From the NCBI RefSeq assembly GCF_056746865.1, contig NZ_CM163382.1: a DNA stretch of 64,000 nt. The stretch is one strand, 5' to 3'. This document shows positions 17,063-22,874 of the stretch, one piece after another. How positions within the stretch are numbered: position 1 is the first letter of the stretch; every line of letters starts with the position of its first letter. The notes under the pieces are model-generated. The model was given only the letters and a program-made list of their open reading frames with translations. It did not search any database and was not told where the DNA came from. The position numbers were made by a program, and so were the translations under genes.

Positions 17063-17716
17063 TTACACTTCGGTTAAGGTGATGTTTTGCGGCAGACGAG
17101 ATTTCGGCAGCGTAGCGTTAAAATCTTCAACGCTGTGATGACCCACCGGAACAACTACCAGACTGGTGTAGCCTTTCTCTTTCAGACCAAATTCTGCATC
17201 GAGGATTGCGGCGTCAAAACCTTCGATGGGTACCGCGTCCAGACCCAGCGCCGCCACGCCGAGCAGGAAGTTGCCGACGTTGAGATAAACCTGTTTTGCC
17301 ATCCACTCTGCATCATCATGCAGATCTTTACGGTGCATATCGGCGAAGAACTTGCGACCTTTATCGTTCGCGGCTTTCGCTTCCGGCGTGGCAAAGCGGC
17401 CATCGGCATCTTCCTGGTCAACAACCAGCTTCAGCCAGGCATCGTCCATCGCGGTTTTTGCACAGAACACCACAACGTGCGAGGCATCAAGCATTTTACG
17501 CTCGTTGAACACGTAATTACCGGCAGCGGATTTGGCAACACGCGCTTTACCTTCTTCCGTGCTGGCAACAATAAAATGCCACGGCTGGGAGTTGGTGCTG
17601 GATGGGCTGTATTGCAGGAGAGTTTTGATCTGCTCGGCCTGTTCCGGGGTTAGTTTTTTGCTGGCATCAAATGCCTTAGTGGAATGACGCTTTAAGGCGA
17701 CAGAAATGATATCCAT
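17063..17716 (-). CDS. nfsB: Oxygen-insensitive NAD(P)H nitroreductase NfsB
   Basis: 217-aa [53 protein letters not shown]... matches NfsB. Confidence 0.97.
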
Positions 17717-17794
17717 AAAGACTCCATGTGAAAGTAATTTTGCGTGCCAGCAGATTACAAGGATCGAGATGAAATGGTAAGCGAGAAAAATGCG

Positions 17795-18178
17795 CTATTG
17801 ATTTACGGTTGAGTAAGGACGCAGTCGTTTTTGATCGCGTTTAGCCAGACCATCAACCACCAGATTCCACGAATCGTTGATCAGATCGCGAAGTAACGCT
17901 TCGGAGATTTCCTCGCCGGGATACACCGAAATCCAGTGCTTTTTATTCATGTGATACCCTGGCTTGATGCTTGGGTATATTTGCTGATTTAGCAGGGATT
18001 TTTGTGGATCGGACTTCAGATTGATAAAGGGGACGCCGCGCAGCTCCGACGACAGCATAAAAATCTTGCCGCCAATTTTAAAAACATCGAACTCCGGGCC
18101 AAAAGGCCAGCAAAGCTCGACAAAGGGTAACTCAAGGGCCAGGCGTTTCGTCGTTTCGTGCGGTGATTGCTTATCCAT
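17795..18178 (-). CDS. ybdF: YbdF (DUF419-family protein)
   Basis: Translation from the internal Met ([44 protein letters not shown]...) matches YbdF; the longer upstream ORF extension overlaps ybdJ and is discounted. Confidence 0.85.
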
Positions 18179-18242
18179 AAACGTTCCTTTAGGCGAAGGA
18201 GAATAAGCAAAGTATGCCGCGAAGTTCGGCGATAATCGACGT

Positions 18243-18491
18243 TTAATCCGCCAGCGAGAACCAGCGTCGCCAGATAAAGCGCAGAACAAAATACTCAATA
18301 GCGCCCAGCACTAAAAACCACAGACAAAACAATAAAGTGTAAAGCTGGCTAAGATCCATCAGATGGAACGTGGTCACCAGTTTTTGTGCCAGCGTCAGCC
18401 CCAATGCGGGGGCGGGAAGCAGCAGGCAAGAGAGGAAAGCCATCAGCAAAATGCCTGCTGCGGTGGTCAAGGTTTCTAAAGGGTGTTTCAT
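18243..18491 (-). CDS. ybdJ: Small membrane protein YbdJ
   Basis: 82-aa [85 protein letters not shown]. Confidence 0.9.
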
Positions 18492-18556
18492 AACATTGTT
18501 AAATGTAAGTTAAAACACCATTGTCAGGGATATTCTTCTGTAAGGCAATTCCCGAC

Positions 18557-19684
<1,128 letters not shown>

Positions 19685-20019
19685 TTATGTTGGCGTTTTC
19701 TATTCAGTATAGAAGTCGGAGCGGCTGGGCGAGATGCGGAAGTTCTGGAATGCTTCTTTTTTTTGGTGATGGTGAACTGATTGTGACTGAAGAAGTTTGG
19801 CTACTTTTGCAATGTGACAAGTTATGGCAGAGCTGGCTGGTGGCGAAGAATTTTGACGATTGAGGCATGCAGAAAAATACGGGTTCAGCTTCAGTTGATC
19901 AAATGAGGAGTGAGAAGTCCGAAACAGGACTCACTGTATAAATAAACAGCTATTTTGCTGAAGAAGGGTAAGATAACGGCGGGTGCCTGAAGCTTTCCGG
20001 TTTCAGGTTTACTCTGAGG

Positions 20020-20085
20020 TCTGGAAAGATGAAGCCCCAGGACGATATTTCTATCAACCCTGGGGCTGCCACTCCAAACCCAAAC
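20020..20085 (-). ncRNA. sokE: Putative SokE antisense RNA region
   Basis: Placed by analogy with hok/sok loci, where Sok is antisense to the mok translation-initiation region; no promoter or terminator was resolved, so boundaries are approximate. Confidence 0.3.
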
Positions 20086-20217
20086 AATTTGGATGGTAGT
20101 CCCTTCTTCGCATGGAGGCAATATAAACATGCTGACGAAATATGCCCTTGTGGCTGTCATAGTGCTGTGTTTAACGGTGCTGGGATTTACGCTTCTGGTC
20201 GGAGACTCGCTGTGTGA
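20029..20217 (+). CDS. mokE: MokE, overlapping reading frame needed for hok translation
   Basis: 62-aa ORF starting ATGAAGCCCCAGG upstream of hokE and overlapping it in another frame, as is typical for mok. Confidence 0.55.
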
Positions 20218-20281
20218 GTTTACGGTGAAGGAACGTAATATTGAGTTTAAGGCTGTTCTCGCTTACGAACCGAAGAAGTAG
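20129..20281 (+). CDS. hokE: Hok-family toxin HokE (50 aa), copy 1
   Basis: [50 protein letters not shown], Hok/Gef family. Confidence 0.9.
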
Positions 20282-20302
20282 CCGTTGTGCGGGGAGTAAT
20301 CC

Positions 20303-21641
20303 CATAAGCGCTAACTTAAGGGTTGTGGTATTACGCCTGATATGATTTAACGTGCCGATGAATTACTCTCACGATAACTGGTCAGCAATTCTGGCCCATA
20401 TTGGTAAGCCCGAAGAACTGGATACTTCGGCACGTAATGCCGGGGCTCTAACCCGCCGCCGCGAAATTCGTGATGCTGCAACTCTGCTACGTCTGGGGCT
20501 GGCTTACGGCCCCGGGGGGATGTCATTACGTGAAGTCACTGCATGGGCTCAGCTCCATGACGTTGCAACATTATCTGACGTGGCTCTCCTGAAGCGGCTG
20601 CGGAATGCCGCCGACTGGTTTGGCATACTTGCCGCACAAACACTTGCTGTACGCGCCGCAGTTACGGGTTGTACAAGCGGAAAGAGATTGCGTCTTGTCG
20701 ATGGAACAGCAATCAGTGCGCCCGGGGGCGGCAGCGCTGAATGGCGACTACATATGGGATATGATCCTCATACCTGTCAGTTCACTGATTTTGAGCTAAC
20801 CGACAGCAGAGACGCTGAACGGCTGGACCGATTTGCGCAAACGGCAGACGAGATACGCATTGCTGACCGGGGATTCGGTTCGCGTCCCGAATGTATCCGC
20901 TCACTTGCTTTTGGAGAAGCTGATTATATCGTCCGGGTTCACTGGCGAGGATTGCGCTGGTTAACTGCAGAAGGAATGCGCTTTGACATGATGGGTTTTC
21001 TGCGCGGGCTGGATTGCGGTAAGAACGGTGAAACCACTGTAATGATAGGCAATTCAGGTAATAAAAAAGCCGGAGCTCCTTTTCCGGCACGTCTCATTGC
21101 CGTATCACTTCCTCCCGAAAAAGCATTAATCAGTAAAACCCGACTGCTCAGCGAGAATCGTCGAAAAGGACGAGTAGTTCAGGCGGAAACGCTGGAAGCA
21201 GCGGGCCATGTGCTATTGCTAACATCATTACCGGAAGATGAATATTCAGCAGAGCAAGTGGCTGATTGTTACCGTCTGCGATGGCAAATTGAACTGGCTT
21301 TTAAGCGGCTCAAAAGTTTGCTGCACCTGGATGCTTTGCGTGCAAAGGAACCTGAACTCGCGAAAGCGTGGATATTTGCTAATCTACTCGCCGCATTTTT
21401 AATTGACGACATAATCCAGCCATCGCTGGATTTCCCCCCCAGAAGTGCCGGATCCGAAAAGAAGAACTAACTCGTTGTGGAGAATAACAAAAATGGTCAT
21501 CTGGAGCTTACAGGTGGCCATTCGTGGGACAGTATCCCTGACAGCCTACAAAACGCAATTGAAGAACGCGAGGCATCGTCTTAACGAGGCACCGAGGCGT
21601 CGCATTCTTCAGATGGTTCAACCCTTAAGTTAGCGCTTATG
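20303..21641 (+). mobile_element. IS186 insertion sequence with a 10-bp target site duplication (ggagtaatcc)
   Basis: Terminal inverted repeats cataagcgctaacttaagggttg (20303-) and caacccttaagttagcgcttatg (-21641); flanked by ggagtaatcc at 20293-20302 and 21642-21651; target is the GC-rich palindrome gcggggagtaatccccgc. Confidence 0.9.
20352..21470 (+). CDS. insL: IS186 (IS4-family) transposase
   Basis: 372-aa ORF MPMNYSHDNWSAILAHIGKPEELDTSARNAGALTRRREIRDAATLLRLGLAYGPGGMSLREV... Confidence 0.93.
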   Translation: MPMNYSHDNWSAILAHIGKPEELDTSARNAGALTRRREIRDAATLLRLGLAYGPGGMSLREVTAWAQLHDVATLSDVALLKRLRNAADWFGILAAQTLAVRAAVTGCTSGKRLRLVDGTAISAPGGGSAEWRLHMGYDPHTCQFTDFELTDSRDAERLDRFAQTADEIRIADRGFGSRPECIRSLAFGEADYIVRVHWRGLRWLTAEGMRFDMMGFLRGLDCGKNGETTVMIGNSGNKKAGAPFPARLIAVSLPPEKALISKTRLLSENRRKGRVVQAETLEAAGHVLLLTSLPEDEYSAEQVADCYRLRWQIELAFKRLKSLLHLDALRAKEPELAKAWIFANLLAAFLIDDIIQPSLDFPPRSAGSEKKN

Positions 21642-21765
21642 GGAGTAATCCCCGCATATCCGGTTGTCAGGTCAGGGTGGTAAGGCACCTGCTTTACACT
21701 TTCGCCCGCGGTCAGCAATGGCTGCGGGCGATTTCGTTTTACGAACAATAACGAGCGTTGCCAAC

Positions 21766-22235
21766 AGAAGTCCGAAACAGGACTCGCTGTATAAATAAAC
21801 AGCTATTTTGATAAGGAAGGGTAAGATAACGGCGGGTGCCTGAAGCTTTCCGGTTTCAGGTTTACTCTGAGGTCTGGAAAGATGAAGCCCCAGGAGATAT
21901 TTCTATCAACCCTGGGGCTGCCACTCCAAACCAGACAATTTGGATGGTAGTCCCTTCTTCGCATGGAGGCAATATAAACATGCTGACGAAATATGCCCTT
22001 GTGGCAGTCATAGTGCTGTGTTTAACGGTGCTGGGATTTACGCTTCTGGTCGGAGACTCGCTGTGTGAGTTTACGGTGAAGGAACGTAATATTGAGTTTA
22101 AGGCTGTTCTCGCTTACGAACCGAAGAAGTAGCCGTTGTGCGGGGAGTAATCCCCGCATATCCGGTTGTCAGGTCAGGGTGGTAAGGCACCTGCTTTACA
22201 CTTTCGCCCGCGGTCAGTGATGGCTGCGGGCGAAT
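21766..22235. repeat. hokE locus repeat unit, copy 2 (complete unit between IS186 and entD)
   Basis: Matches copy 1 (19913..20302 plus 21642..21765) apart from a few substitutions and two 1-nt deletions in the mok region; contains an intact copy of the IS186 target palindrome at about 22139-22156. Confidence 0.85.
21980..22132 (+). CDS. hokE: Hok-family toxin HokE, copy 2 (50-aa frame intact; upstream mok frame altered)
   Basis: Identical Hok peptide; in this copy two 1-nt deletions truncate mok to about 22 codons and open an upstream-extended ORF (21836..22132) in the hok frame. Confidence 0.75.
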
Positions 22236-22253
22236 CGTACCAGAAGTTGTCAA

Positions 22254-22874
22254 TTAATCGTGTTGGCACAGCGTTATGACTATCTTTTCTTTTATCTGCC
22301 AGTGCACAGCAAACTGCTCATCCTCTAGTCGAATGATGATCCGCTGTTTATTCCAGCTAATTATCTGATAATCCAGAAAACCTTGAGCGGCCTGTATCTT
22401 GCTTGCCTTAAATGCGCTCTCTTTGGCGGAAAATGCCAGTGTCAGCGCCAGAGAAAAGGTTAAACCGCATTCTGCGAGTCGCTCGTGTTCTGCTGGTGTA
22501 ATAATGTTGTCTGTCAATTCTCTTGCGGTTTGTACAGAGAAAATCTCTTCGATATCAATGCCAATCGGTTGACGAGATACCACGGCTAATGCCGTAGTCC
22601 CGCAGTGGCTAATACTGCCGTATACCTCCGCAGGCCACACAGGTTGGCGTAGCTCGCCGATAGCGGGCACATATTTATAGCCATATTCCCGCAAGGCATA
22701 AACAGCAGCGATTCGTCCAGCTAAATGCTCTGTTTTACGTTTACGTCCAGCGTGTTGCAGTTGTGCGTAGTGTGGCAGCCAGAGTAAATCCTGCTCGCGA
22801 AAACTCGCCGGATCGAACTCAACAAAATGCAGCGTATGTCCGGCAAAGGGGAGGGCGGTATGCGTAGTTTTCAT
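22254..22874 (-). CDS. entD: Phosphopantetheinyl transferase EntD
   Basis: Translation from the internal Met (MKTTHTALPFAGHTLHFVEFDPASFREQDLLWLPHYAQLQHAGRKRKTEHLAGRIAAVYALREYG...) matches EntD; the exact start is ambiguous. Confidence 0.9.
   Translation of the reverse strand: MKTTHTALPFAGHTLHFVEFDPASFREQDLLWLPHYAQLQHAGRKRKTEHLAGRIAAVYALREYGYKYVPAIGELRQPVWPAEVYGSISHCGTTALAVVSRQPIGIDIEEIFSVQTARELTDNIITPAEHERLAECGLTFSLALTLAFSAKESAFKASKIQAAQGFLDYQIISWNKQRIIIRLEDEQFAVHWQIKEKIVITLCQHD

Follow-up and report, generated by a model that had tools for sequence, protein, structure and literature searches.

Two tandem hokE/sokE units in the ybdK-entD interval that differ by two single-nucleotide leader indels and by an IS186 insertion

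The hok/mok/sok system of plasmid R1 combines a Hok/Gef toxin, an RF01794 leader that switches between two conformations, pairing between the 5′ and 3′ ends of the mRNA, and an antisense Sok RNA with a single-stranded 5′ tail, and the hokE units described here resemble it in each of these respects. R1 mok begins with GAGG and, 7 to 8 nt further on, a start codon located in the 5′ arm of hairpin 3. The mok frame overlaps hok out of frame and its translation has been proven necessary (PMC9841398). Translation of R1 mok up to the hok Shine-Dalgarno (SD) sequence is mandatory, and stop codons in mok upstream of hok abolish toxicity; at the other end of the transcript, the terminal stem-loop of the processed mRNA blocks exonucleases and the fbi element holds the full-length form closed (PMC9841398).

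Among the chromosomal loci of K-12 MG1655, hokC/mokC/sokC has the same leader architecture as hokE and carries IS186A past the toxin stop, in a G4N6C4 hairpin homologous to the one found 3′ of hokE. It possesses a canonical mok start (GAGG, 8 nt, and an ATG 57 nt upstream, in frame and under the 5′ end of SokC), which hokE lacks. Since mokC has its stop in common with hokC, it is an in-frame N-terminal extension; the MG1655 annotation includes mokC and contains no mokE. The hokE/sokE locus of the same strain, with IS186B (b4415, b4835), occupies the same ybdK-entD site as the units studied here. Its Hok is identical to theirs bar one residue, and the position of Sok, the LexA box, the IS186 site and the target duplication all match. 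Tandem arrangements of such genes have been described as Hok "islets," with 10% of Hok genes occurring in tandem duplications (bioRxiv 10.1101/2025.08.07.668861). The present pair likewise belongs to a single hok cluster, with under 2 kb between its genes, but differs in that one member is interrupted by IS186 in its 3′ untranslated region (UTR).

The window analyzed here is a stretch of 64,000 nucleotides of contig NZ_CM163382.1 (RefSeq assembly GCF_056746865.1). Its ybdK-entD interval harbors two tandem hokE/sokE type I toxin-antitoxin units at 19900-22260, with ybdK (18557-19675, minus strand) on one side and entD/fepA on the other. Unit 1, or copy 1 (hok at 20129-20281), comprises 19913-20303 together with a displaced tail that runs from 21641 to approximately 21765, and unit 2, or copy 2 (hok at 21980-22132), extends from 21766 to approximately 22240. 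With IS186 taken out, alignment of the units gives a repeat period of about 502 bp. An 801-nt query that covers copy 2 finds a 100% identical match in the genome of E. coli strain 3347558 (NZ_CP071073), whose PGAP annotation reports the order hokE, IS4-like IS421-family transposase, a second hokE and entD; the window is thus not K-12 DNA. The locus is an ordinary hokE pair, already catalogued, with a familiar IS186 lesion.

Both copies encode a toxin of the Hok/Gef type with the expected length of about 50 amino acids (aa). The hokE coding sequence (CDS) of unit 1 lies at 20129..20281 on the plus strand (50 aa, PGAP WP_000956465.1), and that of unit 2, at 21980..22132 on the same strand, encodes an identical 50-aa protein, which matches Pfam PF01848 (E = 2.2e-8) at 34 bits, the cutoff being 22. 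A strong GGAGG precedes hok, with a predicted unpaired probability of 0.4-0.55, and overexpression of the HokE CDS is toxic (bioRxiv 10.1101/2025.08.07.668861). In our comparison, hok is intact in 53 of 56 units, spread over all three of the frame classes described below. The segregating sites in hok comprise 19 nonsynonymous and 9 synonymous ones and give no clear selection signal, since many of them were drawn from low-coverage metagenome contigs; selection on Hok looks weak by this count. In the hokE units of two metagenome contigs, the hok frame is wholly divergent from around codon 15 onward, as though unrelated DNA had taken its place or broken into it.

The complete hok mRNA of unit 2 is predicted at 21834..22236 on the plus strand and includes the leader, the CDS and a 3′ UTR with the fbi element at 22185-22191 and a 3′ hairpin at 22205-22232. 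In its full-length minimum-energy fold, the 5′ sequence GGGUGCCU pairs with the 3′ AGGCACC, as in a tac/fbi interaction. The mRNA of unit 1 (19981..20303, plus strand) contains the leader and the hokE CDS but only 22 nt of 3′ UTR, at which point IS186 cuts off the rest. The displaced 3′ tail of unit 1 is found at 21641..21741 (plus strand), where it carries an fbi-like AGGCACC at 21683-21689 and an intrinsic terminator, detected by a terminator scan, at 21702-21741; it forms a 91-nt repeat with the tail of unit 2. The hairpin at 21702-21741, in the internal unit, followed by its T-run, makes a good intrinsic terminator. Its counterpart in the entD-proximal unit (22205-22240) lacks a T-run in every species compared and continues into AATCGTACC instead.

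IS186 occupies 20304..21640 on the plus strand (1337 bp, with the transposase at 20358-21470) and starts 22 nt past the hok stop of copy 1, inside the G4N6C4 hairpin of the hok 3′ UTR. The element lies in the 3′ UTR of copy 1, consistent with the 3′ region named in the first-pass annotation, and at the same site as in K-12 hokE. The transposase of this IS4-family element is annotated by PGAP as IS4-like and of the IS421 family. The hairpin that hosts the element reads GCGGGGAGTAATCCCCGC. A 12-bp target duplication, GGGAGTAATCCC, is present at 20292-20303 and 21641-21652, and a 38-nt inverted repeat corresponds to the IS186 terminal repeats plus the flanking target copies. The site agrees with the target preference of IS186, namely, a run of G followed by a run of C with a duplication of 10-12 bp; a consensus for this target was reportedly given by SaiSree in 2001. 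An intact target, GGGGAGTAATCCCC, remains at 22142..22155 (plus strand) within the 3′ UTR hairpin of unit 2. Beyond hokC, where the homologous hairpin holds IS186A in MG1655, one metagenome contig has IS186 at the same hokE site with the duplicated target GGGAGCAATCCC, which, being different, indicates an independent insertion. The GGGG-N6-CCCC hairpin of the hok 3′ UTR is a recurrent landing site of IS186. In 179 of 5,426 complete genomes, the element sits in the first of two units. As a consequence of the insertion, the fbi element of copy 1 is moved 1.3 kb away, and IS186 is the solid difference between the two copies.

Each unit is preceded by a LexA box of the CTGT-N8-ACAG type, with the same sequence, CTGTATAAATAAACAG, at 19934..19949 for unit 1, just 5′ of a −10 element TAAGAT at 19969-19974, and at 21787..21802 for unit 2, both on the plus strand and both recognized by sequence match. 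The box in front of hokE does not vary across Escherichia species and has been described before (PMC2826370, PMC11228462); its heterology index in the literature is 4.9, and AZT gave no hokE induction in K-12. Since a box stands in front of each unit, a two-unit strain carries two SOS-box hok promoters. A scan of 19850-22300 with the sigma-70 consensus returned no promoters, and the promoters named here are based on homology and on reading of the sequence.

Both leaders match Rfam RF01794 well above its gathering score of 59, with 82.4 bits for unit 1 (19981-20137) and 83.7 bits for unit 2 (21834-21988). When they were folded, a comparison that the first-pass annotation had put forward, the same three hairpins were predicted for both, with near-equal energies of −59.0 and −59.6 kcal/mol. 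The structure was further evaluated on 18 leaders from Escherichia, Citrobacter and Klebsiella, in which 97.1% of the pairing cells were filled by pairs, against 33-56% in slid controls; nine pairs were changed on both sides, against 4.5 ± 1.3 in shuffles, a number reached in 0 of 500 shuffles. Both columns in which the two copies differ in length are unpaired in this structure.

The antisense RNA SokE, with coordinates carried over from the MG1655 sokE annotation, is predicted on the minus strand at 20025..20085 in unit 1 (61 nt, with a single-stranded 5′ tail of about 11 nt, a terminator hairpin and a U tail) and at 21878..21936 in unit 2 (59 nt). The predicted folds of both consist of a 5′ tail of 10-11 nt, a hairpin and a U tail, as expected of a Sok RNA, and a Sok promoter can be read on the minus strand as −35 TTGCCT and −10 TACCAT. 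One of the two length differences (site 2 below) falls in the 5′ tail of Sok, and each Sok is perfectly complementary to its own unit; the 5′ 14 nt of Sok pair with the other unit by 7-10 kcal/mol more weakly, although the full cross-duplex is still very stable. We considered that the variable loop might provide unit-specific Sok RNAs. This idea was dropped, because tandem pairs have identical Sok-target regions beyond chance (5 of 14 against 0.11 expected), an excess that indicates gene conversion.

According to the alignment of the two units, their leaders differ by exactly two 1-nt indels. Two such differences had been reported by the first-pass annotation, as deletions in copy 2; the differences are confirmed, but the direction finds no support in the outgroups. 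At site 1, copy 1 reads CAGGACGAT (20038-20046) and copy 2 reads CAGGAGAT (21891-21898). The extra C, at 20043 of unit 1 (plus strand), has no counterpart in unit 2, where it would fall between 21895 and 21896; its place in the structure is the internal loop of the Sok-target hairpin. Site 2 reads AAACCCAAACAA (20076-20087) in copy 1 and AAACCAGACAA (21928-21938) in copy 2, that is, CCC at 20079..20081 against CC at 21931-21932 (plus strand), with an adjacent A-to-G change in copy 2. Site 2 belongs to the apical loop of hairpin 3, where the 5′ tail of Sok would pair, and this stretch is the most variable part of the leader. The C at site 1 is missing in K-12, O157, E. albertii, Klebsiella and hokC and was therefore probably gained by copy 1; the most plausible reading is an insertion carried by some first-position units. 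At site 2, both loop lengths are found in the Citrobacter and Klebsiella relatives. When the single-copy outgroups, which are in frame, serve as the standard, copy 1 is at +1 and copy 2 at −1, and neither copy is the reference state.

The two differences change the reading frame of an open reading frame (ORF) that starts at an ATG upstream of hok. In unit 1, this ORF (20029..20217, plus strand) encodes 62 aa out of the hok frame and overlaps hok by 89 nt, with its ATG 100 nt before the hok ATG, so the overlap previously noted for copy 1 is real. In unit 2, the ORF (21882..21950, plus strand) has 22 codons and ends with a TAG 30 nt before the hok ATG, the TAG overlapping a hok-frame ATG at 21944 (ATGGTAG). 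The claim that mok is truncated in copy 2 to about 22 codons hence stands as to the length of the ATG ORF but not as to its identity, as this ORF is not a canonical mok. Scans of the 62-aa and 22-aa leader ORFs against protein families gave no match. Also present, as listed before, is an ORF of 98 aa in the hok frame of copy 2 (21836..22132, plus strand), which runs into hok from a GTG that lies within the 5′ stem, at nt 3 of the mRNA as predicted. Its matches to the Hok family are confined to residues 49-98, and it is a mechanical by-product of the reading frames; similarly, the 83-aa ORF of K-12 matches the family through its Hok part only. A TTG at 21940 in copy 2 opens a further ORF of 42 codons in the same frame as the 62-aa ORF of copy 1.

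Closer to hok, an ATG in the hok frame lies at −36 and is identical in both units (21944..21946 in unit 2 and 20093-20095 in unit 1, plus strand). It is the complement of the Sok −10 box, and for this reason its conservation is uninformative on its role as an ATG. The hokE-like loci of Citrobacter and Klebsiella have a homologous ATG at −32, which opens an ORF whose TGA stop overlaps the start codon of hok (ATGCTGA). The −36 ATG and its homologues may thus mark a conserved coupling ORF.

To place the two copies in their natural context, we compared 59 hokE units, taken from the window, from representatives of five Escherichia species and from 41 metagenome contigs, and assigned each to a frame class according to how far the upstream ATG lies from that of hok. 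The 100-nt class (62-aa ORF, out of the hok frame) accounts for 25 of the 59 units, among them copy 1 of the window. The 99-nt class (83-aa ORF in the hok frame) accounts for 23 and includes K-12, the E. albertii type strain, Escherichia sp. E1V33 and copy 2 of O157, and the 98-nt class (22-codon ORF) for 11, with copy 2 of the window and copy 1 of O157. The arrangement of copy 1 had been taken as the reference that copy 2 lost. This does not hold with such a distribution, in which all three classes are widespread and the ORF of K-12 is, like mokC, in the hok frame. K-12 has a single unit, of the 99-nt class, whereas the window has one of the 100-nt and one of the 98-nt class. In K-12, the lone unit joins the 5′ flank of a first unit to the 3′ flank of a terminal unit; either it was never duplicated and is ancestral, or a second unit could have been lost by recombination.

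The alleles were also counted among complete-genome records, taking best matches with at least 99% identity to a leader allele of about 95 nt. The common 100-nt leader allele is present in 1808 records, the K-12 99-nt allele in 2156 and a second 99-nt allele in 1099. The leader alleles of the window are found in about 349 (copy 1, 96 nt) and about 596 (copy 2, 94 nt) records of complete E. coli genomes, so both are real variants and not assembly errors. Certain genomes have two units of the 98-nt class. Tandem hokE is common in Escherichia, as seen in O157:H7, E. whittamii, the GTDB representative of E. coli and a cryptic-clade genome, with the units about 502 bp apart, and the median number of matching places per complete E. 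coli genome is two. In three other Escherichia species, the leader and the 3′ UTR are 95-100% identical to the window, with the adjoining entD being only 86-92% identical. A search of a plasmid collection returned only mislabelled chromosomes and one Klebsiella relative.

Whether the upstream ORF can be called mok depends on its start. Identification of mok was called non-trivial by the authors of bioRxiv 10.1101/2025.08.07.668861, and our search of the literature on mokE and on ribosome profiling of hokE found nothing useful. A canonical mok has its SD sequence and start codon in the 5′ arm of hairpin 3, opposite the 5′ end of Sok, and reads across the hok start. Such a mok start is absent from both copies, and its start codon is found in none of the 59 Escherichia hokE units; in its place stands GGGG followed by CTGCCACTCCAAAC or a variant of it. 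The other upstream ATGs of hokE are at −100/−98 and at −36. The former is invariant in all 59 units, where it lies under the 3′ end of the annotated SokE and 43-49 nt 5′ of the canonical mok start position. It has a GAGG 9 nt to its 5′ side, which is paired in the predicted fold, and the ATG itself is placed in the internal loop of a 5′ hairpin of about 58 nt. It is missing from the Citrobacter and Klebsiella relatives and is, on this comparison, specific to Escherichia. In K. pneumoniae and K. oxytoca, the hokE-like locus contains a GAGG, 7 nt and an ATG at −51, in frame, and that of K. electrica has a TTG at the canonical mok start position; many gene-caller products of 67 aa are found at the Klebsiella loci, which adjoin mutS. 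The hokE-like loci of Citrobacter have neither the canonical mok start nor the Escherichia upstream ATG. With the canonical start gone and the sole upstream-ATG ORF varying in frame among alleles, mok is not assignable in hokE by analogy with R1.

We hold it to be the probable explanation, with moderate confidence, that the two indels are natural variants, neutral for RNA structure, which shift the frame of an upstream ORF that is non-canonical and unconstrained, and that IS186 is the meaningful difference between the copies. Each unit would consist of a LexA box, a weak promoter and a hok mRNA of about 400 nt whose 5′ end is paired to the 3′ fbi, with a conserved three-hairpin leader, the 50-aa Hok/Gef toxin and an antisense SokE of about 60 nt whose promoter lies within the leader. 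If Sok behaves as it does in R1, its single-stranded 5′ tail would dock on the apical loop of hairpin 3, and the resulting Sok-hok duplex would block translation and trigger decay. The indels would be standing length polymorphisms that disturb neither the predicted fold nor the match between each Sok and its own hok mRNA and that alter only the frame of the ORF from the Escherichia-specific ATG. Since this ATG is non-canonical and its frame varies freely (98, 99 and 100 nt), we infer that hokE is independent of the frame of the ORF. Copy 2 would then be a complete, ordinary hokE unit and not one silenced by a frameshift. In copy 1, IS186 splits the 3′ UTR hairpin and shifts the fbi element and the terminator by 1.3 kb, the same lesion as in K-12 hokE and hokC; given the roles of the terminal stem-loop and fbi in R1, it should prevent the copy from building a stable, closed and inert mRNA pool, and to this extent the first-pass account of copy 1 stands. 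If this explanation holds, little changes, as the locus remains an annotated hokE pair with a known IS186 lesion.

What counts against independence from the frame is that R1 needs translation of mok up to the hok SD, and that the upstream ATG, being invariant in 59 units, under the 3′ end of SokE and 9 nt from a GAGG, could be a replacement mok start. Were the ORF from this ATG indeed mok, copy 2 would be uncoupled, since its ORF stops short of the hok SD by 14 nt and of the hok ATG by 30 nt, and ribosomes would never open its hok start, leaving little or no Hok, with copy 1 coupled but disabled by IS186. The geometry of the ORFs is as this scenario requires, and the effect of mok stops on toxicity in R1 (PMC9841398) is the reason why we regard it as unlikely and not as negligible. 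It must, however, accommodate an ATG away from the canonical mok position and without counterpart in Citrobacter and Klebsiella, whose GAGG is predicted to be paired and which itself sits in the internal loop of the 5′ hairpin. Furthermore, the 98-nt class is common and old, occurs at both tandem positions and in several species, and always has an intact hok. The overlap of the TAG with the hok-frame ATG could also allow reinitiation, and the 42-codon ORF from the TTG at 21940 is still open in the ORF frame of copy 1. When a ribosome was modelled as parked at the TAG, the predicted unpaired probability of the hok AUG rose from 0.18-0.30 to 0.35-0.50, with an inconsistent shift at the SD. Synthesis of Hok from the 98-nt class may be lowered, if R1 is a guide. 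A further point against the favored explanation is that high allele frequency is no proof of function; chromosomal hok loci may be neutral relics homogenized by gene conversion.

The loss of the canonical mok start throughout the clade could also mean a different outcome, in which all Escherichia hokE units are translationally silent and the indels are irrelevant, conservation being due to a role at the RNA level, to gene conversion, or to the promoter elements for LexA and Sok. In none of the 59 units is the SD-like GGGG followed by a start codon, one being retained in Klebsiella and hokC; K-12 hokE was not induced by AZT; and, according to earlier work summarized in bioRxiv 10.1101/2025.08.07.668861, chromosomal hok loci could not kill after loss of the locus. 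Against this stand the intact Hok CDS in nearly all units for which it was scored, the strong and partly exposed GGAGG before hok, and the toxicity of the overexpressed CDS, and we find general silence improbable. We are just as doubtful that Escherichia hokE swapped its lost mok start for the upstream ATG, that the three frame states set the output of Hok and that indels in the loop bound by the Sok tail alter cross-recognition within tandems. If that were true, the frame states would correspond to a frame fused to hok, an out-of-frame overlap, or a TAG overlapping an in-frame ATG. The hokE locus offers a ready natural series of three leader classes for testing translational coupling in chromosomal hok loci.

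Some further features of the region emerged from the annotation. PGAP predicts an antisense hypothetical protein of 89 aa, WP_071592639.1, at 19891-20160 on the minus strand, opposite the leader of hok in unit 1. The corresponding ORF of unit 2 (21803-22011, minus strand) is labelled "frameshifted," because of the two indels. The protein has no Pfam match and probably represents a spurious gene family. When window positions 17489-19809 were compared by blastn with E. albertii NBRC 107761, ybdF/ybdJ and then the hok unit matched and ybdK did not, which suggests that ybdK is missing or strongly diverged at the E. albertii locus. Finally, in the entD-fepA gap, 22933-23039 matches Rfam ES036 above the gathering score and naRNA4 and Ysr224 below it; these matches probably correspond to REP-type repeats and not to dedicated small RNA genes.
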